Source: Longimicrobiales bacterium
GTDB taxonomy: Bacteria; Gemmatimonadota; Gemmatimonadetes; Longimicrobiales; Gaopeijiaceae
DNA length: 64,000 nucleotides
Assembly (NCBI GenBank): GCA_965115885.1
Contig: OZ220479.1
Span: forward strand, 1,732,334 to 1,796,333
Direction of reading: 5' to 3'
The notes beneath the pieces are model-generated. The model saw only the letters and a program-made list of their open reading frames with translations, had not been told where the DNA came from and did no database searches. Within the stretch, counting starts at the first letter, position 1, and the number at the start of each line of letters is the position of its first letter. The translations under genes were made by a program, and so were the position numbers. Shown here piece after piece: positions 25,867 through 55,573 of this stretch.

Positions 25867-26033
25867 CGTGCGTACTCTCCAAAGCGGTTGTCGAAGGCGC
25901 GCCCGGCGCGTGCCGGATGACCGCCCGGAAGCGCACCGGCGCGAAAACGTCAGCTGTACCAACTATAGCCTCCGCAGGTTCGGAAAGCCAGCGAACGGCC
26001 GCCCGACAACGCTCGGCGAGCCTTGCGCTTCGT

Positions 26034-26404: not shown

Positions 26405-29400
26405 TCATTTTCTCGCGAGCTTGAGTCCCGGCGCCACCTCGCCGAGGATCCCGTCGGCCCGTTCGCCGCGTTCGTCCGCCAGCTCGCCGCGCGCGCTCAC
26501 CCGCACATCGAACCTCAACTCGGCCGAGCCGACCGCGCGCAGAAGCTCGGGCACGCGATCGAGCAGATCCTGCATCTGCGCGTGATCGAGGGCGACGGAA
26601 TCGGGGGGAACCGGAGCGCCTGGCGGCCGGATGGGAGGATCCGAGCCGGGCGGGATGGCGGTGGCGGCTTCCGGTTTCTCCAGGATCACCTTGGGGGCTT
26701 GGTCGTAGGTGCACTCGACCGGTCCGCTGCCCTGCGGCCGGACAAGCCATCGGGCGTCGACCGCAGCGGAGATTCCCTCGCGCACCGCGCCCCACGGGAC
26801 CGCGGCGGAGCGTTTCCGGCAGAGCGCTTGGGTCAGAGCGAGACCGTTGGTCCGGTTCTCGGACCAGGCATCCGGCAGAGCCTCTCGGGCGAGGTCCTGG
26901 GGGGCCACCCGTTCCGGAGGGGCGCGCAACTCGGCGCCCGGCTGGAGGGTCCCGACGGGAACCGGCTCCTTCCACGCCGTCGCGGGCGGGTTCGTGACCC
27001 AGAGCGTCCCGTCCTCGACCGCCTCGGTCACCGCCTGCAACACCGCGTCGCGGGGGCAGGCCGGGATCGGCAAGCGGTCTTCGTAGCCTTCTCTCGCGAC
27101 GGTCGCGACATGTCCGCCGGCGAAGTACTCGATCAGCTTCTCGACGGCCAGGGGCTCGAAATCCTCCTCGCTTCCGGAAACCCACAGTCCGGGCAGCTCT
27201 CCGGGCTCGAGGAGAGAGGGATTCAGACGGGCGAGCCGCGCCTTGGCGGGCAGGACGATCTCGAGCTGGTCGTCGTCCGCCGCCACGGACTCGACGTCTT
27301 CCCGCCACCAGGTCCGGGCGCTTCCGTCGGGACGTTTCAACCGAGCCGCGAACAGCCCGCCGCGCACGCCGCCGAGAACGGTGCCGGTCACCAACTCGGG
27401 TCTGAGCACTTTCGGCAACCGGGGATAGCGGGCGAAGGATTCGCTCAGCTGGCTGGCGAGACGGGCTTCGTCGTCCCGTTCCCAGAGGTCGTACGGTCCG
27501 CCCGGCAGGAGCGCCTCGGGGTTGAGGGGCGTGTCCACGATCCGGGCCTTCCTGTGGTTCTTGATCTCCTCGAAGAGGGGTCGGTCGCTCCCGGGAAGCT
27601 TGAAGGCGCGCACTCGATTGCGCTCGTCGACCGTCACGGCGATTCCGTAGGCTTGCCGGACCACTCCGGAAAGCTCCGCCGCCGCCGCCCGGACGTGTCT
27701 GCGCAGGCGCTCGCGGCGGACGGGGTCGATCCGGCGCGCGGCGAGGTGCGTCTGCACGACCTCCCAGCCCAGAAGGCTCCGCGCCTTGCTGCGGGCGGCG
27801 TCCGCTCCCTCGGGGGACGGTACCGCCAGCACCACGGCGTTGCGGTAGGCGCGCGGCCTGTCGGAGCCGGCGGCGCGGTCGAGAAAGCTGCGGGCCGCCT
27901 TGCTGGGCTTGCCGGAGGACGATGTCGCATCCAGCCCGAGGACGGCGAAGCGGAAGCGAACCGTGTCTTCCACGTCGCCGGGCGAACGGGGCAGTTTGTG
28001 CACCTGGGCGCCGGCGGCGGCGGCGGCGGCGCCGCTCCAAAGGCTGGCGGTCTTGCGGATTTCCGCTCCGAGGCGTTCGTCCACCGCTTCCGCGGCGACT
28101 TGGTCTTTGCACGCCTCGTCGTGCATTTGGCGCAAATTGGGCGCGTTGCCGAGACGCCACGTCCCGGGCAGACCGTGGGCGTCCCCGGATCGGGCGTCCT
28201 CGTCCTCGTCGTCCAGAAACCAGGACGTGTCGCGCCACCGTCGGAGCCCCTTTCGCAGCTCGATGAGGTCGGGCCCGGCGCTTCCCACGAGTCGGAGCAA
28301 CTGGTTGGTTCTCGCCTTCCACCCCGGCGGCTGGGAGTGGAGGAAGACGGCGGCAACCGCCTGTTCCAGCTCCCGGAAGGCGCCCAGGGAAGGAAATTCC
28401 TCCTGGGCCTCGCGGGCTTTCTCCATCTCCTTCTCGAGCAGCGGGACCCAGTCCGTCGTCTTTCCCCTCACCGTCTCCTTGGTCGCGATCCCGGCGAGCT
28501 CCCGGATCGCCTCGGAAACGGTACCCGTCCCGGGCTCGTTCAGCAGAACGGCCGGTCCGACCAGCGGGTTGGGATCTTTCCACGCCTCCGCGTCCCGGAG
28601 CGCGATGGCCAGCGTCCTCAGGATGCCGCGCGTCCGCTGGAACCCCTCGATCCCCGTCCATCGGGTGTAGAACACGTCCGTCAGGTCGGGGTGGAAGGGG
28701 AAGTTCGCCAGAAAGCGCTTTTCCGCACGACCTCGTTCGCGCTTCGTGGTCTCGTCGATCCCGGCGATTCCCTTCACGACGCCGATCGCGTGCGGGCGGA
28801 GCGACGTCGGATTCTCGATGCTGCCGGGCTCGAAGAACCGGCGCCGCAGCACCTCCGCCACATCGCCCTTCCCCACCGGCTGAATCCCTTCCTCGCGCTG
28901 ACGCTGAAAGACGTTGGCCAGATCGCGCAGCACCCTTTTTCCCGCTTCGTCGCCCGTCTTCTCGGGTTCGGTTGCGAGCAACGAGGCCACGATGGCGGTC
29001 CGGTCCACCTTGGCGACCGCCTGCGCGAGGGCCTGAAAGAAGTACTGCAACCTGTCCACCCACGCCTGGTCCAGGGCGTTCTTCGCGCGGGCGTACATCA
29101 TCACCTCGTCGAGCAGGATCAGCGTCGCGCGACCGTCGGCCTTCTGCTGACGTTCGATCACCTCGACCAGAAGCGGCTCGGCGGGCGGCGTGTCGCGTTC
29201 GTTGGCGGCGTCGCCGTCTCGCAGAACCCGGAGCCCTTCGACTCCCGCAAGCTGGAAGGCGAGGACGCTCCACGGATGCCGCAGCGTACGGGTCTCGCCG
29301 CCCGGGCCGCGCACATCCTTGACCCCTTTCTCCACGTCGATCTTGTCGAAGCAAAGCGCCGCGGTCGCGGCTTGGGGGAGGGCCCCGTCCGCGTGCCCGC

Positions 29401-29752
29401 GGAATTCGCGGACCGCCTCGAGGTCGGGAAGCCGATCCGGGTCCTGGAAGAGGTGGTGCAGGGCGATGAGCGTGTGCGTCTTGCCGCCGCCATAGGTCAG
29501 CTCCAACTGGCGGACGGCCTTGTCGCTCCTGCCCGCCAGCCGCGTCGCCACGTCCCGGACCAAGTCGCGGAGCGCCAAGGTCGGATACGTCAGAGCGAAG
29601 AATTTCTCGGGATCTTCGTACAGCGGACGCCGACCGGCCCGGCTCGCGACTTCGTGGAGATCCGCGGCGAACTGGGAGAGCGACAGCTCTCCGGTGCGCA
29701 ACTCGGCCTTGAGCGCTACGGCGTGGTGCCAGGGAGCGGGAGCGGAGGGCAT
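26405..29752 (-). CDS. DUF499-family ATPase (defence-associated, partner of DUF1156 methylases)
   Basis: 1115 aa. N-terminus: PWHHAVALKAELRTGELSLSQFAADLHEV..YEDPEKFFALTYPT. P-loop-like motif: TYGGGKTHTLIALHHLF. Also LLDEVMMY. Confidence 0.8.
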   Translation of the reverse strand: MPSAPAPWHHAVALKAELRTGELSLSQFAADLHEVASRAGRRPLYEDPEKFFALTYPTLALRDLVRDVATRLAGRSDKAVRQLELTYGGGKTHTLIALHHLFQDPDRLPDLEAVREFRGHADGALPQAATAALCFDKIDVEKGVKDVRGPGGETRTLRHPWSVLAFQLAGVEGLRVLRDGDAANERDTPPAEPLLVEVIERQQKADGRATLILLDEVMMYARAKNALDQAWVDRLQYFFQALAQAVAKVDRTAIVASLLATEPEKTGDEAGKRVLRDLANVFQRQREEGIQPVGKGDVAEVLRRRFFEPGSIENPTSLRPHAIGVVKGIAGIDETTKRERGRAEKRFLANFPFHPDLTDVFYTRWTGIEGFQRTRGILRTLAIALRDAEAWKDPNPLVGPAVLLNEPGTGTVSEAIRELAGIATKETVRGKTTDWVPLLEKEMEKAREAQEEFPSLGAFRELEQAVAAVFLHSQPPGWKARTNQLLRLVGSAGPDLIELRKGLRRWRDTSWFLDDEDEDARSGDAHGLPGTWRLGNAPNLRQMHDEACKDQVAAEAVDERLGAEIRKTASLWSGAAAAAAGAQVHKLPRSPGDVEDTVRFRFAVLGLDATSSSGKPSKAARSFLDRAAGSDRPRAYRNAVVLAVPSPEGADAARSKARSLLGWEVVQTHLAARRIDPVRRERLRRHVRAAAAELSGVVRQAYGIAVTVDERNRVRAFKLPGSDRPLFEEIKNHRKARIVDTPLNPEALLPGGPYDLWERDDEARLASQLSESFARYPRLPKVLRPELVTGTVLGGVRGGLFAARLKRPDGSARTWWREDVESVAADDDQLEIVLPAKARLARLNPSLLEPGELPGLWVSGSEEDFEPLAVEKLIEYFAGGHVATVAREGYEDRLPIPACPRDAVLQAVTEAVEDGTLWVTNPPATAWKEPVPVGTLQPGAELRAPPERVAPQDLAREALPDAWSENRTNGLALTQALCRKRSAAVPWGAVREGISAAVDARWLVRPQGSGPVECTYDQAPKVILEKPEAATAIPPGSDPPIRPPGAPVPPDSVALDHAQMQDLLDRVPELLRAVGSAELRFDVRVSARGELADERGERADGILGEVAPGLKLARK

Positions 29753-29892: not shown

Positions 29893-32637
29893 TCAAGGTT
29901 GGGAATCCCACAGCGTCGCCTCCCGGACCGGAGCCCGAGGCCCGCTCCGGCCGAGGTGGTTCTGGAGTTTTTCGAGCATGGATCTCTCTTCGGATCCCGG
30001 CGCCGCCATTTCCAGCACGGCCTGCACGACGCCGGCGAACGTTTCGCTCTTGCGGAGTCCGCGCACGTCCAGGAACTCGTCGATCCGGGCCGGATCCCCC
30101 TTCTTCCAGATCCGCATGGCCCGATGGAGGCTGTCGATGAGCGGAGCCGCTCCGCCCTCCGCCCCGGACGATCCGATCTTGCGTCGGCTCCAGCGCTTCA
30201 GCCGGAGTTCGCTGCCCGATCCTCCCGACGCATCGTCGTCGGTCGATTTCGCCTTCCCGCGCACCAGCAGATCGTGACGGCCCAACAGGTCGGCGTCCCT
30301 GAAGTTGCAGGAGAGCGCGTAGAGGATGACCGCGCCCGCCGACGCCCCGGCCATGCCGAAGTCGTGTCGGTGCAGGAGATAGTAGGTCGTGAGCTCGTCG
30401 AGATCGCCCGCGGCGCCGTCCCCCTGCGAGAGAAGCCGACCCACGACGAAGCCGACGACGATGCGGCGGACGCCCGCCAGGAACTCGCCGACGTGCATGG
30501 GGCGTCCGCCGACGCCGCGTTTGACCACCGGGTACCGGCTGAACGCCTCGAGCGCCGGGCCGGTCGCCGACCACACGAAGTCGGGCCCGCGGATGCCCGC
30601 GTCCCAGAAGTCGCGGAGCTTCCCCGCGATCCGTTCCCGCATCTCCTCCAGCACGGTGGACTCCCACCCGGGTCGGGTCGCGGCGCGCTTCCGGCAGACG
30701 AGCCAGATGGAGGAGGCGAGCGCGGCGGATTCCATGGCCCGTTGCCGGTTCTGCATTTCGGTCTGGATGGGCCATGACCCGGTGGCCGCGAACCCGGAGC
30801 GGATCAACGCGGAGACGAGCGTTTCCCAAGCGTCCGGGTTCTTGTTGGCGAAGACGACGACCATGCGCCCATCGTCCCGGAGCGCCTCGTGGCACCGCGC
30901 GAAAGCGCGGGCCATTCCGTCCTCGTAGTTCTTCTTGGAAGCCTGCCTGTCGCCTTCGAAGCGGCTGGCGTCGTCGATCAGTTCGCCGTCGCCTTCTTCC
31001 GCCCGCCACTTCGGACCGAGCGGCTCGGCGAAAACCTCGCCGATCTCCGGCGAGACGCCGTCGAGCGCGCGCCGCAGCCACACCTGAAAGAAATCCATCA
31101 GGTCGGAATAGGGGATCGCGTCGTAGTAGGGCGGGTCGGTGCACACGAGATCGATGCTGCCGGGCGGCGGAGCCAGGGCGCTGCGCGCGGTGACCTGCGG
31201 AGCGGGGCTCCCGGAAACGGCGGGAAGCGCGTGGTCCAGGTAGCGGGCGACCCAGTCGAGTATCGCCATGAATCCGCCCGTGGTCTCCGAGAGCGGGTCG
31301 ACCTCGCAGAAGTCCCAGACCATGGGGAGGGCGAAGCGGGCGTAGGTTTGTCTTAGGTTCTCCCTACCGTTGTCCCAAGTGCAGATCGAGCTGCTGTAGT
31401 CGGCGAGTTTGCTCAGTGCGCATGCCAGATACGCCGTCAGCGCCTCCCGCCACTCCTCCCGATAGCCGTGCCCGGCGATTTCCTCCCGCACCGCGCGGAT
31501 CTCGCGCAGCAACGTGCCGAGGGCGAGGAGCTGACGGTCGGTGAAAAGGCTTCCCCAAGTGTCGAAGCCGTAGCGTTGGACCCTGGTTCCAAGGCTGCCT
31601 TCCTCGGGCATGGGTTCGTTGGGCAGCCCGAACGGAACGGCATCGTAAAGCGCTTCGATTTCCTCCGCATCCACCTCCGCCGCAGCCAAGTCGAGGTCGG
31701 TCGGAAGTCGGTATTCCTTGCCTTTCTGGCCATCGATCACCACGGCGACCATGCGGGCGCCCAACCGACCGGATCGACCCTGTGCGCGCAGTTCCCTCAT
31801 TCCGGCGACGGCCCCGCAACGGGGACAGGTGGCCCCGCTGCGACTCATGATTCCCTTGCCCAGCCGCTGGTCGTGCGCGCGTTTGCGGGCTACGGAACCG
31901 GTTGGCGACGGAACGTCCCGCTCGATTCCGAAGTCGACGCGGCGCGACTCCGGGTCGGGCTTCATGGTCAGCCGGACCCGCTTGACCGGGCTGCTTTTCT
32001 TGCACAACCAGCGGGTTTTCAGCAGAGGCACTTCGGAGCGGCACCCGCCGCATTCGGCCGTGCGCGTCCACAGATAGGCGACCACCGGCTTCTCCACCCA
32101 GCGGGGTCGACCGTCGTCGTCCAGATGCCGTTTGTCGAATTCGGCGTTCAGGGCGGCCGCGGACACCCGTCCGTCGTCGTCGGGCTTCAGGTACCGAGGC
32201 GGTCGTGATGCGAACTGCGGTTGGGCGTCCGGGGCGGACTTCTTCTTGCGTCCCTTGCGACGGCGCGGCTCGAAATGCGCGTACGCGGGATATCCGTCGG
32301 CCAGCTTCGCGCGCACCCGGTCGCGTACGCGCAGGCCCCAGGCCCGCACGTGCCAAGCGAAGTTCGCGCCCGTGGGCGCTTCTGCAACATGAGCGGTGGC
32401 AAGCTGCACGTCGTTCCCGTAGCTGTGGCCCAGCTCGGCGAGCGCGCGCCGCCTCCGCGTCGGGGTGTTCGCGCCCCGCGATTTGACCAGAGCGGTGGCG
32501 AACTCCCGGTCGGCGATGGCGAAGCCCGGAAGCGGTCTTTCACCCCGACCGACTCGATGCGGGTAGTGGAGCGCGCAACGAAGCACGAACCACGCGACGG
32601 GATTCAGATGGGAATTATACGCCTGCCTTGACAGCAC
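29893..32637 (-). pseudogene. DUF1156-family putative DNA methylase, 5'-truncated
   Basis: - The ORF opens at ..AYNSHLNPVAWFVL.
- It contains the Zn-ribbon-like CGGC..CPRC and the catalytic CTDPPYYDAIPYSDL.
- It lacks the N-terminal DUF1156 module and the motif I (DPFxGGG) segment expected upstream of the NPVA segment.
- Upstream DNA (32638 onward) is unrelated, lower-GC sequence. Confidence 0.7.
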
Positions 32638-32765
32638 GGCAAGATCATGCCACCTTCAATCTACGCTAAGAGCAATGCAATGAAGGGGTTGCATGGTAGC
32701 GAAGGGACCGGAAAAGCACCACCGGAAAGGCATCACGATGTTGCAGGTTGCGGCGATGTTCGCAA

Positions 32766-32795
32766 CTGAGGAAATCGGGTTCCTCGCTTTTTTTT
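32766..32795 (+). terminator. Orphan intrinsic terminator at the methylase truncation junction
   Basis: GAGGAA-ATCGGG-TTCCTC hairpin followed by GCTTTTTTTTG. There is no plus-strand CDS upstream. Confidence 0.5.
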
Positions 32796-32959
32796 GTGGA
32801 TTGCTGTAGGTTTGGGGCCGCCGTGCTGGATGCGTGCCGGTGGTGGAATCCGGCCGTCGGCAGGCAAGCGTTTCGCGTCTCCGCCAGGGTCGGTTGACCG
32901 CCCCTCGGCGACATGTGCCAACGGACGGGATGGACGTCGAGATTTCGGGCATCGAAGAT

Positions 32960-33150
32960 AGTCTATTCCAACGCGGTGATGAGCCCGAACGCGGGGGTGT
33001 TGCGGGGGTAGGATGAGCGGCCCGAGATCCGAGGCGTCGTGGGCGTGAAACGGACGTATCAACATCCCCTCCGGAGCCGAGCCGTGCAACCGGATCGGGG
33101 GTTCATGGACGCACGCGAGCCGTTGGGCGGCACCCCTTCACGAGCGGCTG
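32960..33150 (+). repeat. Repeat R1, copy a (191 bp direct repeat)
   Basis: Near-identical to 39322-39512. It begins AGTCTATTCCAACGCGGTGATGAGCCCGAACGCGG and ends CGAGCGGCTG. Confidence 0.9.
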
Positions 33151-33832
33151 CGGCGATGACGTGCACGCGGCGGACTGGGTGGGTGATCCGATCTTGGATG
33201 TCTTCCCCGCCCGTCACCCCCCCTGACAAGTGCAGTTGGGGTTGGTTTTGGGGTTGCCGTCGGCCTGGGGCGGGCGCGGCCGGTGCGTGGACTTCCGCGT
33301 GGAAGGTGTTGACCTTCAGGCGCATAGAGCGCCTGTCCATTCTCGCCGAAAGGTCGGCGTCCACGGCGATGCGTCGGGATCGCCGGAAGTTGCCCAAAGG
33401 AACGCCGTTAGGCGGTCGGGGGAAGCGAGCGTTTCGGATCCGAAGTCGAGTGTCAGCGTGACAGCGCGGTAGCGGTGCGACCCGGGTCAACGCTCGAACG
33501 GGCTTCGGCCCGTGCGATCCGCAGCATGCGAAGCTTCCCCCCCGAACTGTGGGCCGCCACAGTTCGCCAGCCTCGCGCCGACACGTGGACAGGAGGGCCA
33601 GCGCGCGGGTCGACCTGCGTCACGGGTCGGCGGGTCGGCCCGTCCCTTTGAAGGGAGACGTCAGCGCGTCGAACCTCGCGCGATCCCGTCTAGGTGAAAG
33701 GTGTTGATGTTCAGGCGCATAGAGCGCCTGTCCATTCCCGCTGCAAGGTCGGCGTCCATCGCGATCAATCAGGATCGCCAGAGTCCATCGGACTCCCCGA
33801 GGAAGCCGCAGCGATCCGCCCCTCGGACGCAC

Positions 33833-34160
33833 GGCCGGTGGTTCGCATCACGGTAAGGAATCGTCTAACGTCAACTAGGACTGCACGATCTGCCGCCTTA
33901 CCGTCCACCAACTGGTCGGAGTCCGTCTTGTCGAAATGGCTGGAATGCCAGCCCGAAAAGCGGGAGTCGCAGTGGTGCGAGCCTCAACCCGGGTGGCTCA
34001 GCAGAAGGCGGTGGCGGTGATCGAGGGTGCGAGTCGGCGTCCGAAGGGGGGCAAAAGCGGGACGGGGCCGCAAGCGGAGGTTGTCGAGAACTTGGTGGAC
34101 CGTGACTCCCCGGCTGCGGGTCTCGACAAACATCACGTACGTGCCCACCGGCGATGACAG
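33833..34160 (+). mobile_element. IS3-family transposase (OrfB) remnant, copy 1
   Basis: Degenerate frames give ..STRVAQQKAVAVIEGASRR.. and AEVVENLVDRDSPAAGLDK. These are comparable to the IS3 OrfB RVARLMR..G..G.SRR and NLxxRDFxAxxPN segments. Stops and frameshifts are present. Confidence 0.6.
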
Positions 34161-34237
34161 CACCGTTTGGGGCAGGGACGCCTCGGCGTTAGCGTCAGGC
34201 AGAAGGCCGGGGGGAACCGGTTGAGACGGCGCTCGAG

Positions 34238-34378
34238 TTGGCGTTTCTGCACACTTGGAGTCTGACGCGTTTTCGGGGCCTGCAGCTGGCGGCCGGCGTC
34301 GGCGCTGGGACCTCGAGGGGGTGTCTTGGAGCGAACTCGTTGGTTACGCGTTCCTGGTCCACTTCAACCGGGGAGGCG
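34238..34378 (+). mobile_element. Solo fragment of the IS21-family left end / istA leader
   Basis: About 140 bp closely matching 40186-40326 of the complete element (TTGGCGTTTxTGCACAC...AACCGGGGAGGCG), truncated before the istA ATG. Confidence 0.8.
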
Positions 34379-34381
34379 GAC

Positions 34382-34528
34382 GGCCAGTGGTTCGCATCAC
34401 GGTAGGGAATCGTCTAACGTCAATCAGGACTGCATGATCTGCCGCCCTACCACTACCAATTGTCCAATTGCGTCTTGTCAAAATGGCTGGAAGGTCGGCC
34501 CGAAAAGCGGGAATTCGGGTGGTGCGGG
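34382..34528 (+). mobile_element. IS3-family remnant, copy 2 (short)
   Basis: Matches the first ~150 bp of copies 1 and 3 (GGTTCGCATCACGGTAGGGAATCGTCTAACGTCAA...) and then diverges. Confidence 0.6.
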
Positions 34529-34610
34529 TGCTTGGAGCCAGAGGCGGCAACCTCTGACGGGCGATCTCGGTGACCGGGTGCGGGAAAATCGCACGCCCGG
34601 GTTGATGGGC

Positions 34611-34699
34611 GGGGGCTGGAAACGCGGCCATGGGAGTCGGCCTTGGAGGACCGGAGCGAAAGCTAACCGGGGCAGACCTACCGGACCGTAAAGCTGGCG
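34611..34699 (+). repeat. Inverted repeat, left arm (IR-A)
   Basis: The reverse complement aligns by hand with 39232-39320. The core 57 nt has about 52 matches, and the next 33 nt has 24 matches. Confidence 0.85.
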
Positions 34700-35071
34700 C
34701 GCCAGCCCCCCGACCTGACCGCACTCGCGTTGGAGGGCGAACGCCTGGGGAAGCGTTGGGCGTGGGCCTGGAATGAGAGGGTCCGGCGCGTTGAGATGGA
34801 CGTGATCGGAACCGGCGAACCGGCGGCAGTGCTCGCCCGAGGCGACGCGGCGCCGGTTGCCTCGGTTGTTCCATCGGGCGGGGCTTGCCGGAAAAGCCGA
34901 GGTTGCCCCCGACCTGTCCAACGAATTAGGACCACCTCACTTGGGGTGCGAATGCGGAAGGTTGCACATCGTCGGCAGAAGTCGTATCGTGGTATCGGAG
35001 TTTCCGTTGACGTCCATACACGACAGGTTCAAGATGTCATGATTCACTTTGCCGCGCGTACTTGCACAATA

Positions 35072-38000
35072 ATGCGGAAACGCAGACGGGAGATCACGTC
35101 GAGCAAATCGCACGACCTTGAATCTCAACCGCTAGCGTCGTTTCGGGGCGAGGCGGTGTATGTGTTGCTTGGCCCACCGGGGTCGGGGAAGACGGAGGCG
35201 TTCAGGCGCGAGGCCGAACGAGAACATGGACTCTACATCACTGCGCGCAACTTTATTACATTCAATTTTGATCCCGAGTGGGAACGCAAGACACTCTTCA
35301 TCGATGGCCTCGACGAGATGCGGGCCGGAGCCACTGATAGACGTACGCCATTCGACGCAATCCGAAGGAAACTCCATTGTATGAGCTGTCCCCGGTTACG
35401 GCTTTCGTGTAGGGAGGCAGACTGGTTCGGTGCTACCGACAGGGAGCGACTAGAGGAGGCTATGCCCCATCGTAACGTACAGGTGTTGCGGCTTGATCCA
35501 CTGTCGGATCAAGGAGTCCTCGAGATCCTCGAACGGAATCATGGGGTCGAAGATCCGGCGGCTTTCGTGGCGGTTGCCCGTGAAAGGGGCGTCGCAAGCC
35601 TGCTCTCGAATCCACAGAACCTGCGAATGCTCACGGAAGCAGTGGACGATGCGGGTGATTGGCCACGAACAAAGACAGAGACCTTCGACATGGCCTGTCG
35701 AAAGCTGGTCTCCGAAAAGAACCACGACCACCGGATTGCGTTGCCCAGCAGCGCCAGTACGCAAGCGTTGATGGACGGTGCCGGCCACCTGTGCGCCCTG
35801 TTGCTACTGGCCGGCAAAGATGGCGTCACTCTTCCCGGAACTGCATCAGACGGGAACTACCCAGATATTAGTGGAATATCCATTGTTGATCGTTCTTGTC
35901 GCGTGGTGGCCACCAACCTGTTCGCTTCGCAGTCCGAAGGCCGCATGGTCCCCGTGCACAGGCATGTGGCCGAGTTCGTAGCAGCACGATATCTTGCCAA
36001 TCTGATCGCCGGTGGGCTACCGGTTTGCAGAATCCTCTCGCTCATGACGGGATTCGACGGCGGCGTCATCTCGGAATTTCGCGGCCTTGCCGCTTGGCTG
36101 GCAGTCTGCAGCAAACCCGCCCGTGAGGCACTCATCAGACGCGACCCGATTGGCGTGGTCCGCTACGGCGACGCGGAGACCTTTAGCGTTTACGATAAAG
36201 CGCAAGTCTTCCGCGCTTTGCGAGCGGAAACGGTGCGGAATCCGTGGCTGGCCAGCCAGATTCCTCTGGACTCACTATGGGGACGCCTCGTCGATCCTTG
36301 CCTAGAGCCGGAGCTCAATCGCGCTCTCGCTGATCCCGCACGGGATGAGGCACATCAGTCATTTGTTTTGCTGATCCTTGCTGCAATCAGCTCCCGGCCA
36401 GTTGTTCCCGGAGTTGGTGACACCCTGATGGCCATTGTTCGGGACACCTCTTGGCCAACGATGCACCGGTGCGCCGCAGTGGAGGCATATGCGCAAAACC
36501 GCCGGCGCGACCACCAGGGACTTTCCGCTCTCCAGAGCCTTATCAACGACGTCTACTCAAGCAAGGTGCCGACCCTAGACGATGATCTGCTGGGTACCTT
36601 GCTGACGGAACTCTATCCCGATGAACTGACACCATGTGATCTCGTTGGCTTTCTGAGAAAGCCGGCGCAATCTGGACATTTTACACGTTACGTTGCGTTC
36701 TGGCTGGATGGATTGATCAAGAGCTCCACGGTCGCGCAAATGGCCCAACTGCTCGATCTGCTCAGGACGCCGATGAAAAAGGCGCGAACGGAAGCGGGGA
36801 ATGCACGACCGCACGTCAATGTCGTTGGTTTCCCGGCGCAAGTGCCACTGGCATTGTTGCGACACCTCCTCGAGAATGCACCCGAAAGCGTTTCTCGGAA
36901 ACAAGTACTGCACTGGCTGGATTTCGCGGGCTGGATCAGGGAAGGGCAGAGTGTCTCCTTCGTAAACAGGGTCACCAACGCGGAGTTTTTTAGCAACTGG
37001 CTCGGTGCTCATCCGGAAATACAGAAAGCCATCATCGAGAAAGGAGCAAACAGATGCCCGGAGGCACACGATCCGTTCCGTTGGATGCACAGAGTCAAGC
37101 AGAGTCTATTCGAGGCAACACTACCGCCCGACTATGCTGTCTGGTGCGCGGATCAAGCACTAATTGCCGGCAATGGCAATATAGCAAGATGGTTTGTCGG
37201 AGAGGCGGCGGCGTTTATCCATTACCAATTCACATCTGATGCTCCAGAGAAGAAGAAAGTCGCCTGCAAATTACAGAGCGATGCCCGTTTATTGATGATG
37301 TTCGAGAAGATACTACTAGTACACATGGAGAGCCAGGATCAACTCATGCAACAAGATGGGAGCTCACATTCCCATCCACTAACGAACGATGGGCGTTTCG
37401 ACGAGCTACGTAAATACACAAGAGCCAACGTGAGCACGCTACGCGCCAACCAGTGTCTGCCAGCACTGCTCAATCACCTTGCGATGGCCTACCTTGACAA
37501 CTTCCTTGATGTGCGCGGCGAAACGCCTGAGGACCGACTTCGATGCCTGCTCGGCCCGGATGATACGCTACTGTGTGCCGCGCGTACCGGCCTGCGAGGT
37601 GCAATACACCGGACAGATCTTCCCACATGGATCAAGATCCTAGAACTGGCTGACAATAAGCAGACGCATCTCTTGGCGTACCCGTTCATGATTGGACTCG
37701 ACGAGTGCTCTCGGACTGAGAACGAAGAAATCCAACTGACTGAACACCAGATTCGCTTGGGCCTTTCCATTCATCTTGCGGTTCCACGACTTTCTCACAT
37801 GCACAGCACGGAGCACCCACCGCGTTGGCTGTGCACCGCCGTGGCGAAACGGGCAGACGTTGTCGCTACGACATGGAGCTACTGCGTCCGCCGACAACTT
37901 CGAAAAGGTGTGGAAATCCTCCCGGACACCTACCCATTGTCCCATGCGGCCGCATATGCGCCCTTGGCATCCAAGGTTTCTCTTCCAATCCTGAGTACCT

Positions 38001-39175
38001 TTCCAGTCCGGTGCAGGGCGAGACAGTTGTCGATTTTGAAAGATCTGCTTCATGCCGCCTTACGTCATGCCGACAAAGCACAACTCCTGAAATTGATCGA
38101 AGAAAAGCTCGCTTGCAAGAGCATGAACTCTGGCCAGAAGGTGTACTGGCTTGCGGCCGGACTGTTTGCGAGGTCTGAAATCTACGGCGAGCGGCTGGTA
38201 TCGTATGTATCCGGAAAGCGTCGGGCGCTCCGGATATGCCGATTGATGGAAATGACATTGGATCCACGCTCCGCGCCGTTGGCGATGAGCGCGACAACCC
38301 TTAAATGGCTTGTTCACCTGATTGGGCCACATTCTTCCGCGCCGCCGAGGAGCGGAGAAATCTATTCGGTGACGTTGCCGATACAAGCGCATCACCGTCT
38401 TTGCGGCTTCATCGACCGGCTTGCGGAGGATGCTTCACTCGAGGCCATGCATGCACTCGAGTCACTGGCTTCGGACGACCGGCTCGTCAACTGGCGGCCG
38501 ATGCTTCTTGATCGCCTCCATAAACAGATGAGTATTCTCCGGAAAACCACCTACCAGCACCCGACTCTTGAACAGGTGGCCGAGGTCTTAGACAACGGCC
38601 CACCTGCCAACGCGGCGGATCTCTGGGCCCTCACCGTCGATGTGCTACACCAGATTTCCGAGGATATCCGAAATGGGGCGACATCGGATTGGCATCAGTA
38701 CTGGAACGTCGACCGATACGACCGGCCAGAAGTACCGAAACCGGAAAACGCCTGTAGGAATGCCTTGTTGTCCAAATTGGAGCAAGCGTTGGCCCCCTTC
38801 AAGGTTGACAGCACAGGAGAAGGTTCGTATGCGGACAGTAGACGCTCTGACATTCGCATCTCCATCCCAGGATACAACATCCCGATCGAGATCAAGCGGA
38901 GCTGTCACGCCAAATTGTGGAGCTCTGTAAACACCCAGCTCATCGACATGTACACCCGCGACCCCGACACCGACGGATACGGAATATATCTAGTTTTCTG
39001 GTTCGGAGAGGCCATCCATTGCAAACCTAAACTTGAACCGGCGTCGAAAAGAAAGCCGCAGTCACCGGAAGAACTTCGAGAAGCACTGGTAGACCGGCTG
39101 AATTGGCAGGAGCGCCGAAAGATCGCGGTCTGCGTGATCGATGTGTCGAACCCGAGAGATCAGACGGAGGTTTGA
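35072..39175 (+). CDS. Giant NACHT/STAND-like P-loop NTPase with C-terminal PD-(D/E)xK-type nuclease-like domain
   Basis: - Walker A: LLGPPGSGKT.
- Walker B: TLFIDGLDEM.
- NACHT-like segment: LLSNPQNLRML.
- About 1000 aa of helical repeat-like sequence.
- C-terminal E..RRSDIRISIPGYNIPIEIKRS..GIYLVFWFG (D-x13-ExK).
- In-frame alternative ATGs at 34952 and 35039.
- The 34730-34950 part of the track ORF is repeat-derived. Confidence 0.8.
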   Translation: MRKRRREITSSKSHDLESQPLASFRGEAVYVLLGPPGSGKTEAFRREAEREHGLYITARNFITFNFDPEWERKTLFIDGLDEMRAGATDRRTPFDAIRRKLHCMSCPRLRLSCREADWFGATDRERLEEAMPHRNVQVLRLDPLSDQGVLEILERNHGVEDPAAFVAVARERGVASLLSNPQNLRMLTEAVDDAGDWPRTKTETFDMACRKLVSEKNHDHRIALPSSASTQALMDGAGHLCALLLLAGKDGVTLPGTASDGNYPDISGISIVDRSCRVVATNLFASQSEGRMVPVHRHVAEFVAARYLANLIAGGLPVCRILSLMTGFDGGVISEFRGLAAWLAVCSKPAREALIRRDPIGVVRYGDAETFSVYDKAQVFRALRAETVRNPWLASQIPLDSLWGRLVDPCLEPELNRALADPARDEAHQSFVLLILAAISSRPVVPGVGDTLMAIVRDTSWPTMHRCAAVEAYAQNRRRDHQGLSALQSLINDVYSSKVPTLDDDLLGTLLTELYPDELTPCDLVGFLRKPAQSGHFTRYVAFWLDGLIKSSTVAQMAQLLDLLRTPMKKARTEAGNARPHVNVVGFPAQVPLALLRHLLENAPESVSRKQVLHWLDFAGWIREGQSVSFVNRVTNAEFFSNWLGAHPEIQKAIIEKGANRCPEAHDPFRWMHRVKQSLFEATLPPDYAVWCADQALIAGNGNIARWFVGEAAAFIHYQFTSDAPEKKKVACKLQSDARLLMMFEKILLVHMESQDQLMQQDGSSHSHPLTNDGRFDELRKYTRANVSTLRANQCLPALLNHLAMAYLDNFLDVRGETPEDRLRCLLGPDDTLLCAARTGLRGAIHRTDLPTWIKILELADNKQTHLLAYPFMIGLDECSRTENEEIQLTEHQIRLGLSIHLAVPRLSHMHSTEHPPRWLCTAVAKRADVVATTWSYCVRRQLRKGVEILPDTYPLSHAAAYAPLASKVSLPILSTFPVRCRARQLSILKDLLHAALRHADKAQLLKLIEEKLACKSMNSGQKVYWLAAGLFARSEIYGERLVSYVSGKRRALRICRLMEMTLDPRSAPLAMSATTLKWLVHLIGPHSSAPPRSGEIYSVTLPIQAHHRLCGFIDRLAEDASLEAMHALESLASDDRLVNWRPMLLDRLHKQMSILRKTTYQHPTLEQVAEVLDNGPPANAADLWALTVDVLHQISEDIRNGATSDWHQYWNVDRYDRPEVPKPENACRNALLSKLEQALAPFKVDSTGEGSYADSRRSDIRISIPGYNIPIEIKRSCHAKLWSSVNTQLIDMYTRDPDTDGYGIYLVFWFGEAIHCKPKLEPASKRKPQSPEELREALVDRLNWQERRKIAVCVIDVSNPRDQTEV

Positions 39176-39231: not shown

Positions 39232-39320
39232 GGATGCGGTTTAGGGTTCGGTGGGGTTGCGTCGGCTAGCTTTCGCTCCGGTCCTCCAAGGCCCGACTCC
39301 CGTGGCCGCATTTCCAGCTC
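39232..39320 (-). repeat. Inverted repeat, right arm (IR-B)
   Basis: Inverted copy of 34611-34699, starting 57 nt after the NTPase stop codon and abutting R1 copy b. Confidence 0.85.
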
Positions 39321-39321
39321 C

Positions 39322-39512
39322 AGTCTATTCCAACGCGGTGATGAGCCCGAACGCGGAGGTGCTGCGGGGGTAGGGTGAGCGGCCCGAGATCCGAGGCGTC
39401 GTGGGCGTGAAACAGACGTATCAACATCCCCTCCGGAGCCGAGTCGTGCAACCGGATCGGGGGTTCATGGATGCGCGAGGGCCGTTGGGCGGCACCCCTT
39501 CGCGAGCGGCTG
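39322..39512 (+). repeat. Repeat R1, copy b
   Basis: 191-bp direct repeat of 32960-33150. A further shared 36-bp block (39946-39981 versus 33824-33859) lies downstream in both copies. Confidence 0.9.
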
Positions 39513-40328
39513 GGGAGCATACCAGGTCGCTGGGCGGGCCGAGGACTCGGGCGAGTCTCGTCCAACGGCGAATGAGGCCGAATTCGGGGGTCGTGGCACC
39601 TTTGGAGCATGGTCATGATTCTCCACCTCTCTCAGATCCGCATTCTCGTCCCCCTTCGAGCACCACCGGGGCCCGTGCCAACCGACTCCGACGGGTATCG
39701 GGCGATGCTCGCCTTCGATCTCACGGCGAGCTACTGCGCGTGGGTGTCGATGCACGGGGACGTGCGGCGCAGGCGTGAGCCGCTGCTTGGCGGCGGCTGG
39801 GCGTGCCGGTGCTCGAGGTGGCCGGGCCGGATCGCGTGCCCCCAAAGGGCGCAGAGGAGGACGACGCGCTGGACGCGGTCGCGGCGGCGCAGGCCGGTCG
39901 CGGCGGATACGGAGTCCGCGTGGCCAAGGACCGCACCGGCGCCGTCGAACGCACGGCCGGTGGTTCGTATCACGGTAAGGACTGGGGTTGCGTATTCCAC
40001 GGATGTGGTCCAGCTGTTCCAGGGGATGTGATCCAGCCAGTCCAAGCGATGTGATCCACTCGCCGGCGGCTCGTAGTGGACGGTTGGGGCGGGGATCCTG
40101 AAGGGGTGCTGGATACGATCTGGTCGAGATTGTTACCGGGCGTCAGAGATTACACACAAATTGGCGCGTGAAAGTGCACACTTTTTGGCGTTTGTGCACA
40201 CCTGGCGTCTGACGCGTTTTCGGGGCCTGCGGCTGGCGGCGGGCGTCGGCGCCGGGACCTCGAGGGGGGTGTCTTGGAGCGAACTCGTCGGTTACGCGTT
40301 CCCGGTCCACTTCAACCGGGGAGGCGCA

Positions 40329-41342
40329 ATGATCGACGAAGGCAGGAAGGTTCGAGCGAAGAGGCTCTTGGCGAACGGGGTGTCCAAGAGGGCGACGGCG
40401 GCTGCAGTGGGGGTCGCGCGGCGGACGCTGTACAACTGGATCGCCCGCGACTGGGCGGGGGTGAAGCGCGCGCCGGCGCGGAAGTCGCGGCTGGACGACT
40501 ACAAGCCGTTCATCGACGCGCGCTTGGCGGCGTATCCGAAGTTGAGCGCGGCGCGGCTGTACGAGTCGGTGCGGAGGTCGGGGTTCGAGGGCAGCTACAG
40601 CGTGGTCGTGCGGTACGTGCGGGGAGTGCGTCCCTGTCCGGAGCCGGAGCCGGTGCAGCGGTTCGAGACGGAGCCTGGGCGGCAGGGGCAGGTGGACTTC
40701 GCCGAGTTCAAGTTCCCGTGGGGCAAGCGCTACGCGCTGGCGGTGGTTCTGGGCTACTCGCGGTGGCTGTGGGTTGGCTTCTACGAGCGCGAGACGATGG
40801 CGGCGCTGGCGGACGGGCTCGAGCGGGCGTTCGCGGCGATGGGCGGCGTGCCTGGGGAGCTGCTGTTCGACCAGATGAAGGCGGTGGTGAACTCGGACGA
40901 GCGTCCGGCGGGCGGGAAGCTGATCGAGAACGCGTCGTTCCGGGGGTTCGCCGATCACTGGGGGTTCAGGATCCGGGCGTGTCGTCCGTACCGCGCGCAG
41001 ACGAAGGGGAAGGTCGAGCGGCCGATCCGGTACCTGCGGGAGAACTTCTTCTACGGTCGGGAGTTCGCGAACGACGAAGAGGTGAACGAGCGGTTGCGCG
41101 GCTGGTTGAGCGGGGTGGCGAACGTCCGGGTGCACGGAACGCTGAAGGAGAGGGTGTCGGATCGGTTCGAGCGCGAGCGGCCGCTGTTGCTGCCGCTGGC
41201 GCCGCGTGGCTACCGGTTCGTGACGCCGAGGCCGATGCCGGGGGAGAGCGGGGATGCGGACGTGGCGCCAGCGGAGGCGCCTGCCGTGGACGTCGAGAAG
41301 CGTCCGCTGGCGTACTACGCGGATCGGCGGAGGGGTTCGTGA
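40329..41342 (+). CDS. istA: IS21-family transposase IstA
   Basis: The ATG is preceded by GGGGAGG. N-terminal HTH, then a DDE core (QVDFAEF..LAVVLGYSRW..LFDQMKAVV..RPYRAQTKGKVER). Confidence 0.92.
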   Translation: MIDEGRKVRAKRLLANGVSKRATAAAVGVARRTLYNWIARDWAGVKRAPARKSRLDDYKPFIDARLAAYPKLSAARLYESVRRSGFEGSYSVVVRYVRGVRPCPEPEPVQRFETEPGRQGQVDFAEFKFPWGKRYALAVVLGYSRWLWVGFYERETMAALADGLERAFAAMGGVPGELLFDQMKAVVNSDERPAGGKLIENASFRGFADHWGFRIRACRPYRAQTKGKVERPIRYLRENFFYGREFANDEEVNERLRGWLSGVANVRVHGTLKERVSDRFERERPLLLPLAPRGYRFVTPRPMPGESGDADVAPAEAPAVDVEKRPLAYYADRRRGS

Positions 41343-43392: not shown

Positions 43393-43400
43393 GCCGAACT

Positions 43401-43960
43401 GGTTTAGATCACGGCAAGGAATCGTCTAACGTCAACTAGGACTGCACGATCTGCCGCCTTGCCGCCCACCAGCTAGTCTGATTCCGTCTTGTCGAAATGG
43501 CTGAAATACAGGTTCGAAAAGCGGGAATCCCCAGTGATGCGAGCCTCAACCGGGTGGCTCGGCCAATGGTGTGGCGGCAATCGAGGGTGTGAGTCGGCGT
43601 CGGAAGACGGCGAAAGCGCGACGGGGGCCGCAGGCGGAGGTTGCCGAAGACTTGGTGGACCCTGACTTATCGGCTACGGGTCTCGACAAGCTCTGATGGC
43701 GGACATCACGTTTGTGCCCGCACGGGACGGTCCCCGTATCTGGTGGTGGTGCTGGATGTGTGAAGGGACTTCGCCAGACGCGGACTTGACTTGCGACGGT
43801 GCCTAGGCACGGGGCTGTGCTGGTGACTGCTGGAAGAGGGCCGAGAGACTCGCGGCGCTTGAAGCCAGGCGGGATCTGGACTCGGCCGCCAAGCACCGCT
43901 GGATGGATGCGATCTTGGCGCGTCTCGGTGCGTAGAGGGGTGCTGGACACGATTGGATCG
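43401..43960 (+). mobile_element. IS3-family transposase (OrfB) remnant, copy 3 (longest)
   Basis: Spread over three reading frames: NRVARPM.., AEDLVDPDLSATGLDKL, ADITFVPARDG, YLVVVLDV and DFARR. This matches the IS3 OrfB order NLxxRDF-PNxxW-DITY-YLxxVLD-FSRR. It is truncated where the AT-rich DNA begins. Confidence 0.7.
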
Positions 43961-44894: not shown

Positions 44895-44999
44895 TCATTT
44901 CTTCACCCAGCGGATGATTCCGCCGACGATGCTGAATCCGTAGAACCACAGCATCACCAAGAATACGATGACTTCGCCCGGCTCGTCCAAGGGTCCCAT
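44895..44999 (-). CDS. 34-aa single-pass membrane peptide (below the track's 60-aa cut-off)
   Basis: The ATG at 44997-44999 is preceded by GAGAGGA-N5. Sequence MGPLDEPGEVIVFLVMLWFYGFSIVGGIIRWVKK, with stop TGA at 44895-44897. Confidence 0.5.
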   Translation of the reverse strand: MGPLDEPGEVIVFLVMLWFYGFSIVGGIIRWVKK

Positions 45000-45124
45000 G
45001 CTGTTCCTCTCAATCGGTGTGACGTTGCGCCGCTCGACACAAAGTAGAAATAGTAATGTCCGGATTCGACCAGCGCAACGGTTGGCGAAGTCGGATGCGG
45101 TCGCCTCCGAAGAGGACGCGCTTG
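44985..45124 (-). repeat. Repeat R2, copy 1 (140-bp upstream/regulatory module)
   Basis: About 85% identical by hand alignment to 50384-50523. It spans a hairpin, a promoter-like region, the SD, the ATG and the first few codons. Confidence 0.85.
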
Positions 45125-45181: not shown

Positions 45182-48100
45182 CTATGCCGCTGGCGTGACG
45201 AAGTCGTCGCGCATCCGAAACGCGGCAGAAGACCCGACCTCGACAAGGCAGTCGAGGATGAAAAGCACCGCGTCACGGATACGGTTGTCGCGCTTGAGTT
45301 CGAGTGGCCGTCCATAAACGTACCGTTGCAGCAGCACCTCAAGCATAAAGACCGTGTCCGACTTGGCGAACATCTTCTGCGTGTTGCCGCGCTGTAGCGC
45401 GTCGCCTACGCGCACGAACGCATCGGGTAGCGAGCGTTCCCCGACGTGATAGAGAAACCGGGCGTAGTTATCGAGAACGACGGCTGTGGTCGGGAGGGCT
45501 TCGAAGAGGGCGTGCACAAGATGCGCGTGGCCATCGAGAAACCGCCAGTGCCGGACATCGTCCTTCCAACCCAACGTCAGAAAAACCGCCGACAACAGGT
45601 GAGTGCCATCTGGGTGCCTGTCCGTGTCCAGACCGGCAAGCCACTTCGCGCGTTTGACCGCGTCGGCGATGAGTTTCCACAGGAACCAATACTGGCACGT
45701 GTTCGGGTTTCCATCCTGCAGACGTGTCAATCCCTTCATGACGGATCCAAGCTCATAAGAGTGGCGGTCAACGGTCGCGAGCAGAGGGGCCAATACCCGC
45801 TGTGCAGCTTCTGGACACGTCCGCAACGAGAATTCTTGAATGCGGCCGGACACCTCGGATTCAGTATGTAAGTCCCTGTGGCCCCCGTTGCTGCGGTCGT
45901 CATTGGACGTCCACCAGCTGGCGAGCGTAAGGCTCGCACGGGCGAACGCGGTGATTGCGATCGGGTCTTGCGGCACGTGCCCCAGGATCACGAGCATGCG
46001 CTTGACCGCACGTGCACCGAAGCCGTCGGAGATGTCGAGCGTGACGTGTGCATCCTCAGCAATCCCGCCGTCCTTCCAGAACCGCGCCCGGATCTCCCCA
46101 GTGGTTTCCAGCTTGATCTGGTCCAGACTGCGGCGCTCATCATGAGGACGCGCGCGCTCGGCGTCTTGCGCCCTATCGATAGTGGCAGCTTCGACCGCAA
46201 TCGCGTTGACGCAGCGCAGGGCGAGCGCCCGCTTGGCGGCCCAGACGGTTTCGTCGATGCTCCATGTCGCGTATGACCGCACCTGCTCCACCGGATGTGT
46301 CAGGGCGGCGGCAAAAGCGGTCTTCACCCGTTCAGTGCGCGTTGGGTCGAGCGGCTTGCGGAGCAACTTCGCCAGCACGGAGGCGCCGACCCTGTCGGCG
46401 GCCATGGGATTGTTCTGGACGCGCTCCGTGCGATCGGTGGCGTCGGCGTGTCGCATGACTTCCGTGCAGACCCTATCGACGCACCAGTCTCTTTGCGCCG
46501 ACATCATGTCGTCCCAGCGGTCACGGATACAAACGGCGGCAACAACGCCAGGCGCGTGCCGACTGTCGTCCTCGTCTTCGACTTGGCCGTCCATGGCCTG
46601 CGCTTCGGACAGCTTCGCCGCCCATTGTGCGGGGTCGTACTTGCCCGTTTCGCCGCGGAAGGCCTGCCTACCCCACATGAGCAAGCCGAATCGTGCGTTC
46701 ATTGTCGCCAGATGAGCGGCGCTTTCATCGACGATTGCCTGCAGGTCCGCCTCAGGCGGCGTCGGATCGAGGCGAACGTAGTGCCGCGGCGAATCACCTG
46801 CCCTCGATTGTGAGTCAGGGATTTCGGGGCCAGGTGTATCCGAAGCGGAGTATTGGCGGAGATCCATGCGATGGATAGCGAGGCGCCACAAGCGGTCGCC
46901 TTCGTCCTGTTGCTCCCTCGGCGGCAACGCCGCCAGATGGTTGTCGAGGAGAGCGTGGACACGGGGCTTGAGCGGCCCGAGCTGGAGATTTGCAACCGCC
47001 GTCTCCAGGTCCTTCTGCCGATGCGGCAAGGCGTCCGCCTGCTTGCGTTCCATCCCGTAGATCTGGTGGTCAGCGAGCATCGTCGGAATCATGGCCGCCA
47101 TCCGCGTCATCTGGAGCTCGCCCGCGAGACGGCTACGGTCCATTGCAACGTAGTCGCGGACGCCGAGGAGCACCAGCAGAGCTTCGCCGGACGCGTGCGG
47201 GTAGGCGGTAGCCACGCTCGCGACGACAGCGGCGAGCGCTGAGTTGTCGGTGCGGCGCAGGATGTCGACGAGAATGGCATCCAGCCGTTTCGGTTCTTGC
47301 TGCCCGACCTCGAGCAGCCAACTCTCTAGCGCCATCAGCATCGACTGGAGCCGATAGGGTGCGACCTCCATACCGCGGTAGGAGCCCCACAAGCGGGTAT
47401 TCGTCCACTGTTTGCGCGTCGTACCGTCCGCGAACGTGAGTTCGACTTCCCAAGCTTTCTCGAGAGGGTAGTGCAAACGGGGATGCGCGTACCAGTCGGC
47501 GCTATGGTTGAAGACCTTGATGTAGAAGTCGAGAGCCTTCTCCGAGTGATGCCGCAACAAGTTGGTCCATGGGCCGCGCACTGCGCTCGCCGGGAACGTG
47601 TCGCGGCGTAGATCTTCCTTGATCCCGAAGTACAGCTCGATATCGAGAGGACAGCGCCTGTAGCGGCGCTCGTCGTCGATGTCTTCCTCCGAAGCGAGCA
47701 GATAGTCCGCACCGACTGAGATGACGACGTCCGGCAGATCGCGCGCTGCGGGCATGCCATCGGTACCCGTGTAGATGAGCCCTTGGAAGTCCTCCGCTAT
47801 AGCGCTGCGGTGTTCTTCCACCTCAATATTGCTGCGCAACGTCGCCTCGAAGCGCGCGGCGTCGCCCTTGGGGAGCTTGGCGATGACCTTGAGCACGCGC
47901 TTGCGCGGCTCGTCGCCTCCGTAGCCGCGCAGGCCGTCGAGGAGCCAATGGGCGATACCGATGACATCGTCGGCGCCATCGAGATCGGACACCGACCCGG
48001 TCACACCGCACACCGCGTCCTCTACAAGCCTGAGCAGGAGCGCTCGCTCGTTGGCCGTGAAGGCTGCGAGATTGCGATGTACGAGCCGCAACACTGCGGG

Positions 48101-50350: not shown

Positions 50351-50383
50351 ACATAGCGACCCGACCGTAGCGGGCTCTAGCTT

Positions 50384-50719: not shown

Positions 50720-53855
<3,136 letters not shown>

Positions 53856-53859
<4 letters not shown>

Positions 53860-55463: not shown

Positions 55464-55573
55464 CGATCATGTCGGCCAAGGCCAAGGCCTTGGCGTCGTC
55501 GACAAACGACGGCAACAGCTCCATCGCCGCGTCCGCAAAACCGTCGCTGAAGCCGGTGGCTTCGAGATCGCGT

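Follow-up and report, generated by a model that had tools for sequence, protein, structure and literature searches.

Does the large gene in the middle of this stretch encode a single-gene antiviral system of a kind not yet described? The stretch, 64,000 nucleotides of contig OZ220479.1 from a Longimicrobiales bacterium, is referred to below as the window. An initial annotation, made from the letters alone, read the gene as a giant NACHT/STAND-like NTPase with a nuclease at the C terminus, the reverse of the usual order, and as a candidate defence system complete in one gene. Our analysis upholds the domain assignments, the low G+C and the defence-island setting, and changes the reading as an undescribed single-gene system. 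The gene is best read as encoding an EruA-like NACHT defence protein that was horizontally acquired, has been orphaned from its operon partner and is probably silent or impaired rather than fully active, a reading to which we assign a probability of about 0.62.

An EruA-like NACHT protein

The gene lies in a single open frame on the + strand, spanning 34730–39175, and its product comprises three parts.

35039–39175 (stop included), + strand: intact gene for a 1378-residue EruA-like bacterial NACHT protein (open reading frame, family N terminus, profile match)
35144–36061, + strand: NACHT NTPase module, approximately residues 36–341, with nucleotide-binding, helical and winged-helix domains (motifs, model, conservation)
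35171–35194, + strand: Walker A motif GPPGSGKT, residues 45–52
35294–35317, + strand: Walker B motif LFIDGLDE, within the NACHT module
36062–38551, + strand: middle region of ∼830 residues (342–1171), rich in leucine and alanine, a candidate sensor or scaffold (conservation, partial model)
38552–39172, + strand: PD-(D/E)xK nuclease-fold domain, residues 1172–1378 (model, Foldseek, invariant residues)
38744–38896, + strand: putative catalytic residues E1236, D1271 and E1284-x-K1286, followed by Q1300, Y1305 and the GIYLVFWFG strand

The reading frame is intact, and every motif quoted for it is present (GPPGSGKT, LFIDGLDEM, LLSNPQNLRML, PENACRNALL, RRSDIRISIPGYNIPIEIKRS and GIYLVFWFG), at positions conserved in at least 97% of 115 full-length homologues. 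The start codon at 35072 does not stand. The likely start is the ATG at 35039, 11 codons further 5′, because three features favour it: the added residues MIHFAARTCTI fit the family consensus MxHFVxRTCT, in which T8 and C9 are invariant (here and below, in an alignment of 16 sequences); a public protein that matches the window protein at 100% (P0001) is also 1378 residues long; and the ATG shares the sequence ATGA with the TGA of an upstream gene stub, described below.

The family is identified by NCBIfam (release 20), whose equivalog NF058535.1, “NACHT domain-containing antiphage protein EruA,” aligns with residues 19–1370 of the window protein, colinear with profile positions 5–1318 of 1318 (E = 4.6e-273). 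The score of 909.6 bits falls under the curated cut-off of 1000 bits, as do those of all five scanned members of its clade, the window protein included (884–933 bits). A plasmid protein of Bradyrhizobium sp. CW1, WP_247777624.1, passes the cut-off with 1189.6 bits, and plasmid homologues from Pantoea and Vibrio reach ∼775 bits. Although only ∼27% identical to WP_247777624.1, the window protein shares with EruA the order of a NACHT module, a long helical region and a C-terminal PD-(D/E)xK domain, and with that member in particular the nuclease motifs E...D...ExK...Q...Y...GxYxxFWF. The plasmid homologues, at 25–33% identity, all retain the C-terminal nuclease motifs. By these sequence comparisons, the window protein is a sub-threshold, clade-distinct relative of the named antiphage family EruA. 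Because the cut-off-passing EruA homologue carries the same C-terminal nuclease, the “reverse polarity” of the protein is a trait of that family, and the claim of an undescribed architecture falls: a named family matches the protein end to end. A search of the literature for the publication behind the names Eru, Hyo and Pro (EruA, HyoA) found no antiphage paper.

The most conserved part of the protein is the NACHT module, which has the lowest column entropy of the whole chain (1.11 bits). It is unusually compact: ∼40 residues separate its two Walker motifs. Walker A has five invariant residues (G45, P47, G48, G50 and K51), and conservation of its T52 is 90% or higher. The NACHT-specific Walker B signature D[GAS]hDE, as defined by Kibby et al. 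(bioRxiv 10.1101/2022.07.19.500537), is present as DGLDE in the invariant segment I88-D89-G90-L91-D92-E93, and DGLDE or DALDE is also found in the standalone homologues. A sensor-1-like motif, LSCR (R125), is invariant, as are H307 and R308 of the winged-helix motif PVHRHVAEF; from the motif, H307 would be the equivalent of NLRC4 H443. An AlphaFold model of residues 1–511, built from a 17-sequence alignment (mean predicted local distance difference test score, pLDDT, 74), was compared with the PDB using Foldseek. The top 11 matches are all NLRC4 (E values from 5.6e-8 to 7.6e-5), followed by Avs4 (8dgf) and then generic AAA+ proteins. The model thus supports the first assignment of this module as a NACHT-type STAND NTPase.

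The C-terminal domain is almost as well conserved (1.12 bits). A model of the last 203 residues (pLDDT 82, predicted template modelling score, pTM, 0.83) has the PD-(D/E)xK core fold, alpha-beta-beta-beta-alpha-beta. Its best PDB match by Foldseek is Can1 (6sce, E = 5.6e-4, probability 0.99); further matches include PspGI, Hjc, SfsA, Cdn1, Can2, McrC, EcoRV and HindIII, and nearly all of the top ones are PD-(D/E)xK proteins. The effector-like domain that was first recognized from its motifs is thus modelled as a nuclease fold, rather than the non-nuclease fold that would have spoken against it. The predicted catalytic pattern, with an acidic residue in helix 1, D in strand 2 and (D/E)xK in strand 3, is provided by E1236, D1271, E1284 and K1286, all four of which are invariant and are retained in standalone EruA homologues at 27% identity. 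Metal-dependent nuclease activity is a putative function of this domain. A search with a profile of the domain returned 2842 clusters (50% identity), of which 1001 have E ≤ 1e-30; in every one of the best 150 of the 2842 the domain lies at the extreme C terminus, and the full-length proteins among these 150 measure ∼1330–1410 residues. Sequence searches of the PDB with the full protein and with profiles of both end domains gave no significant match, such that matches came from fold comparison alone.

Between these two domains lies the most variable part of the protein, with entropies of 1.4–2.1 bits and a peak of 2.0–2.1 bits at residues 660–810. It had been called repeat-like, a description that the sequence does not confirm: self-BLAST found no internal sequence repeats, and no TPR, HEAT or LRR family of Pfam matches the window protein. 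Residues 308–506 are all-helical in the AlphaFold model. The Pfam family DUF8371 (PF28130) is on record, somewhere along the chain, for many homologues. With the NACHT and nuclease parts the most conserved and the middle the most variable, the protein fits a switch/sensor/effector layout, in which the middle region would act as the sensor, most likely of a phage-derived trigger.

The operon partner and its loss

In relatives of the window protein, the NACHT gene has a constant neighbor. A gene for an ATPase with AAA_14 and DUF4143 domains lies directly upstream of it in 85 of 85 related loci, as detected by tblastn. These loci comprise the best 80 of 552 pattern-selected matches, from a scan of GTDB species representatives, and five from exact-protein look-ups of three homologues. 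In the first loci examined, where the NACHT homologues are 59%, 53% and 41% identical to the window protein, the partner is 401–425 residues long. The two genes overlap by 4 nucleotides (nt) in the loci with called genes (L001–L005); in the others the partner mostly ends at, or no more than ∼25 nt from, the start of the NACHT gene, and in some (e.g., L006 and L048) the contig end cuts the partner, of which part is visible. The set covers more than 12 phyla, and the groups with the pair include Gemmatimonadota/Longimicrobiales, Gamma- and Alphaproteobacteria, Latescibacterota, Acidobacteriota, Binatia, Nitrospirales, Chloroflexota and Spirochaetia. Conservation is stronger in the partner, with identities of 58–95% versus 32–60% for the NACHT protein. 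Judged from this gene order, the clade of the window protein natively has a two-gene operon with the NACHT gene in second place, rather than the single-gene system first proposed. This also separates the clade from the sampled standalone EruA-type genes, which have no such upstream gene. An “ATP-binding protein” upstream of a distant homologue on a Burkholderia plasmid was considered as a partner and proved unrelated.

The partner matches the PADLOC candidate PDC-S01 (model PDLC04791) from end to end, with 539–550 bits; no NCBIfam model matches it. PDC-S01, from the candidate set of a preprint by Payne et al. (10.1101/2024.01.29.577857), is an ATPase fused to a PD-(D/E)xK-superfamily domain; one survey of defence types places it fourth in frequency over all prokaryotes, and most such candidates await validation (PMC12988326). 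Although PDC-S01 is catalogued as a single-gene candidate, the subfamily found here always comes as a pair with an EruA-like NACHT gene. We tentatively suggest, as a possibility that we hold at somewhat less than even, that the PDC-S01-type ATPase-nuclease and the EruA-like NACHT-nuclease form an undescribed obligate two-component defence system. In the loci examined, this PDC-S01 subfamily does not occur as a stand-alone gene; it forms the conserved first part of a two-gene module with a nuclease resembling nucleotide-binding leucine-rich repeat (NLR) proteins, which offers a testable functional hypothesis for the subfamily. In the proposed two-component system, the conserved ATPase-nuclease would cooperate with, or be guarded by, a fast-evolving NLR-like sensor with a nuclease of its own.

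In the window, no intact AAA_14/DUF4143 gene precedes the NACHT gene. Its place is taken by two features.

32960–34961, no strand: non-coding mosaic of repeated mobile-element fragments in the place of the partner (blastn, Rfam)
34962–35042, + strand: stub, the last ∼26 codons and stop of the partner, an AAA_14/DUF4143 ATPase of PDC-S01 type (tblastn, profile search)

The stub corresponds to partner residues 401–425 by tblastn and is also the best-scoring piece of a six-frame search. Its translation ends ...HIVGRSRIVVSEFPLTSIHDRFKMS, and the C termini of intact partners end ...IVGRGGIPVSEFLLTPAPEWFEGS. Nucleotide identity to the 3′ ends of the partner genes of close relatives is 50–58 of 81 positions within the stub versus 20–26 of 82 immediately upstream, and because this drop to chance level occurs just upstream of the stub, the breakpoint can be placed near 34960. 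A six-frame profile search of 32000–35200 recovered the terminal stub and no further partner sequence. In a neighbor-joining tree, itself a crude distance tree, the window protein groups, within the partner-coupled clade, inside the branch of Longimicrobiales/Gemmatimonadota, and because it is nested in this way the loss of the partner is secondary. As read from these alignments, all but ∼80 nt of the partner gene has been deleted, and the window copy of the NACHT gene is an orphan.

The base composition of the gene also sets it apart from its surroundings, as the initial annotation had noticed from hand-counted samples. G+C per kb is 54%–58% in the gene and 65%–73% in the flanks, and G+C at third codon positions (GC3) is 0.62 versus 0.83–0.91 for neighboring genes. 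Because both values are low relative to the surroundings, the composition points to horizontal acquisition, and to a recent one.

The insertion sequence (IS) debris first reported here is real, and consists of repeated mobile-element fragments and a flanking IS21 gene.

34238–34378: 5′ fragment of IS21 istA, 93.7% identical to 40185–40326 (blastn)
32960–33153: direct repeat, 94% identical to 39322–39515 (blastn)
33839–34129: repeat, 84% identical to 43400–43689, the second copy lying past the IS21 element (blastn)
34597–34692 (+) and 39240–39338 (−): inverted repeat of ∼99 nt, 82% identity, bracketing the stub and the NACHT gene (alignment)
39240–39515, no strand: downstream repeat copies, inverted (39240–39338) and direct (39322–39515) (blastn, alignment)
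34570–34686: weak group II intron domain V/VI-like element (Rfam Intron_gpII, 26.7 bits versus a gathering score of 40)
40161–41342, + strand: IS21-family transposase gene istA, immediately downstream of the NACHT gene (NCBIfam transpos_IS21, 268.5 bits, cut-off 160; Pfam rve and HTH_23)

The bracketing repeats and the IS21 neighbor fit a rearrangement or mobilization that truncated the operon. In such a history, the module would have arrived by horizontal transfer, and rearrangement among the mobile-element fragments would then have removed the partner gene. The upstream copy of the inverted repeat overlaps the intron-like Rfam match, and the downstream copy (39240–39338) has no Rfam match. 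We rejected the idea that a group II intron caused the deletion: the only match is sub-threshold and ends ∼270 nt before the breakpoint, and the inverted copy gives none. The repeated element may be an intron fragment, a MITE or a structured RNA.

The upstream non-coding stretch contains further direct repeats of its own, among them 33299–33387/33694–33782 and 33828–33979/34377–34526. The direct repeats upstream are 90–290 nt long with 79%–91% identity, and no open reading frame or Rfam family accounts for them.

Many of the pair-bearing genomes (L006–L085) are metagenome-assembled and have isolate names (RHO, APA, CAR and jk18x series) that suggest sponge or marine host-associated microbiomes; their distribution over more than 12 phyla implies extensive horizontal spread of the two-gene module in that habitat. 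Genes of defence or mobile type stand beside the homologues at L003 (14475–15761), L004 (7972–9258) and L005 (11556–12053 and 14307–15485). The genes at these three loci encode SLFN/AlbA_2 with HATPase_c_4, Peptidase_M78 with a helix-turn-helix domain (HTH), SocA_Panacea, an MmeI-like restriction-modification (R-M) protein and an IS605/Cas12f-like TnpB; such neighbors support the residence of the family in defence islands.

Functional state of the orphan

The bacterial NACHT (bNACHT) proteins are a close known parallel. The window protein shares with them the D[GAS]hDE Walker B motif and the conserved winged-helix histidine, and with bNACHT25, whose effector is Mrr-like, an effector with the fold of a restriction endonuclease; in both, a DNase would be expected to be switched on in an NTP-dependent manner. 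In bNACHT25, mutation at the equivalent of NLRC4 H443 causes auto-activation and the nuclease mutation D48A rescues the resulting toxicity (10.1101/2022.07.19.500537). The bNACHT effector is usually N-terminal, whereas that of the window protein lies at the extreme C terminus, a placement that is infrequent but does exist among bNACHT proteins (Kibby et al., bioRxiv 10.1101/2022.07.19.500537). The same study reports no tested bNACHT with a DUF4143-ATPase partner, and a survey of STAND proteins (Nature 2026, PMC13581612) contains no mention of Eru or of a DUF4143 partner. The Avs (AVAST) proteins, such as Avs4, are similar in being big single-chain STAND NTPases with a large sensor, a nuclease effector and a location in defence islands, but they belong to a different STAND clade, in which the effector comes first and a TPR-like sensor forms the C terminus, and in the Foldseek comparison the likeness to Avs4 (8dgf) is confined to the NTPase. 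For this protein, Pfam and PADLOC v2, a check with the latter having been suggested at the outset, returned weak P-loop matches only, none of them to the NACHT or Avs models of PADLOC, and the Avs profiles of NCBIfam also failed to match, which argues against membership of the Avs group.

By analogy with bNACHT and Avs proteins, we propose a model in which the resting protein would be held closed and ADP-bound through Walker A K51 and winged-helix H307. A phage-derived trigger would bind the variable middle region, whereupon the NACHT module would open and exchange its nucleotide. NTP-dependent oligomerization may then cluster the C-terminal PD-(D/E)xK domains, which would cut DNA, such that the phage is stopped or the infected cell killed.

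In the window, this machinery would have to act without the upstream gene and whatever accompanied it, and we consider the orphan copy probably silent or impaired. A number of observations weigh against this reading. The open reading frame of 1378 codons is unbroken and retains all of its catalytic and nucleotide-binding residues. The window protein deviates from the family at 9–10 of 233 highly conserved sites, compared with a median of 4 and a 90th percentile of 8; such a mildly raised count is not decisive for relaxed selection, and its mildness speaks against impairment. The partner is absent next to seven of seven sampled plasmid homologues, including the EruA that passes the cut-off, and the existence of distant standalone family members presumably means that an EruA-type fold can work as a single gene. 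The sample of 85 loci is biased toward the clade of the window protein, and the search for another copy of the partner, which found none, covered the 64-kb window of a source genome of 3.7 Mb. As regards the domain assignments, the Pfam NACHT model (PF05729) gives no match above its gathering score to the window protein, and the Foldseek TM-scores of the C-terminal model are modest (0.28–0.42).

Several of these points favor an autonomous single-gene defence system, in which the partner of the relatives would be a dispensable accessory (one that extends the range, for instance, or serves as another effector) and the window copy would be fully functional. Besides the intact frame and complete motifs, this proposal draws on the standalone plasmid homologues, found at 25–33% identity in Bradyrhizobium, Pantoea, Vibrio, Ralstonia, Rhizobium and Burkholderia with one of them qualifying as EruA, and on the lack of an NCBIfam model for the partner, suggesting that the definition of Eru covers one gene. 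Within the clade, however, pairing in 85 of 85 loci and the stronger conservation of the partner argue for obligate co-function. The deletion also took the upstream region, with whatever promoter drove the operon, and the deviations at conserved sites are slightly raised. A scan, in itself weak evidence for this phylum, found no sigma-70-like promoter upstream of the gene, and terminator-like sites were at chance level. Considered together, these data leave full autonomy an unlikely, if serious, alternative to an orphan that is silent or impaired.

A second proposal, that the gene is a weapon or addiction device of a mobile element, carried as cargo between repeats and serving inter-element conflict or plasmid exclusion rather than host antiviral immunity, takes its appeal from the direct and inverted repeats and IS21 fragments that bracket the gene, from distant homologues on conjugative plasmids and from the patchy spread of the family over many phyla. 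A mobile-element location is, however, also typical of ordinary defence systems; the neighbors are classical antiphage systems and the curated NCBIfam name reads “antiphage,” and the loci examined show no consistent linkage to a transposase or conjugation gene. We regard this proposal as very improbable. Finally, that the NTPase and nuclease motifs are chance resemblances in a STAND-like protein with a structural or regulatory, non-enzymatic role, for which one could cite weak Pfam matches (AAA_16 and AAA_22 only, E = 0.16) and the lack of significant PDB sequence matches, is effectively refuted by two independent structure models that match NLRC4 and PD-(D/E)xK nucleases, by catalytic residues invariant in homologues down to 27% identity, and by the end-to-end alignment with a curated family of antiphage NACHT proteins.

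An annotation should describe the gene product as an EruA-like bNACHT nuclease whose operon partner is lost; the gene is neither a new architecture nor a complete system. If the two-component proposal holds, the window would contain a natural partner-less allele, from which one could learn whether the NLR-like half is able to act by itself. A natural comparison for the use of accessory proteins by bacterial NLR-like proteins is offered by three cases: EruA standing alone, the clade with the pair, and the orphan of the window.

The surrounding defence island

The gene lies in a defence island, as originally proposed. The island extends over ∼16.8–59.8 kb of the window and carries the EruA-like gene and the IS21 element among the following defence genes.

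16831–22014, + strand: ProA/PDC-S37-like, Hhe-like helicase, 1727 residues (ProA 1458.5 bits, cut-off 1500; PDC-S37 end to end, 1808.9 bits)
26405–29752, − strand: HmaC-like AAA+ ATPase (227 bits)
29893–32637, − strand: HmaB-like DNA methylase (271 bits)
45182–50350, − strand: Avs4-like STAND gene, 1722 residues, 6 kb from the NACHT gene (NCBIfam 468 bits, cut-off 1500; PADLOC 440 bits)
51229–57115, − strand: complete type I R-M set, hsdR (51229–53859), hsdS (53856–55463) and hsdM (55574–57115)
57176–59791, − strand: type II methyltransferase–restriction endonuclease fusion

The HmaC- and HmaB-like genes lie directly upstream of the mobile-element debris. A 499-residue open reading frame (24463–25962, − strand) has no match in Pfam, NCBIfam or PADLOC. 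The Avs4-like gene is flanked by a 144-nt direct repeat of 85.6% identity (44981–45124 and 50380–50523), which suggests that it too is a mobile cassette.

The hsdS gene and the methyltransferase–restriction endonuclease fusion gene are low in G+C like the NACHT gene, with GC3 values of 0.66–0.68. The NCBIfam models for ProA, HyoA and EruA bear consecutive accessions (NF058533–NF058535), and the window holds near-threshold relatives of two systems, ProA and EruA, that were probably named in the same study.

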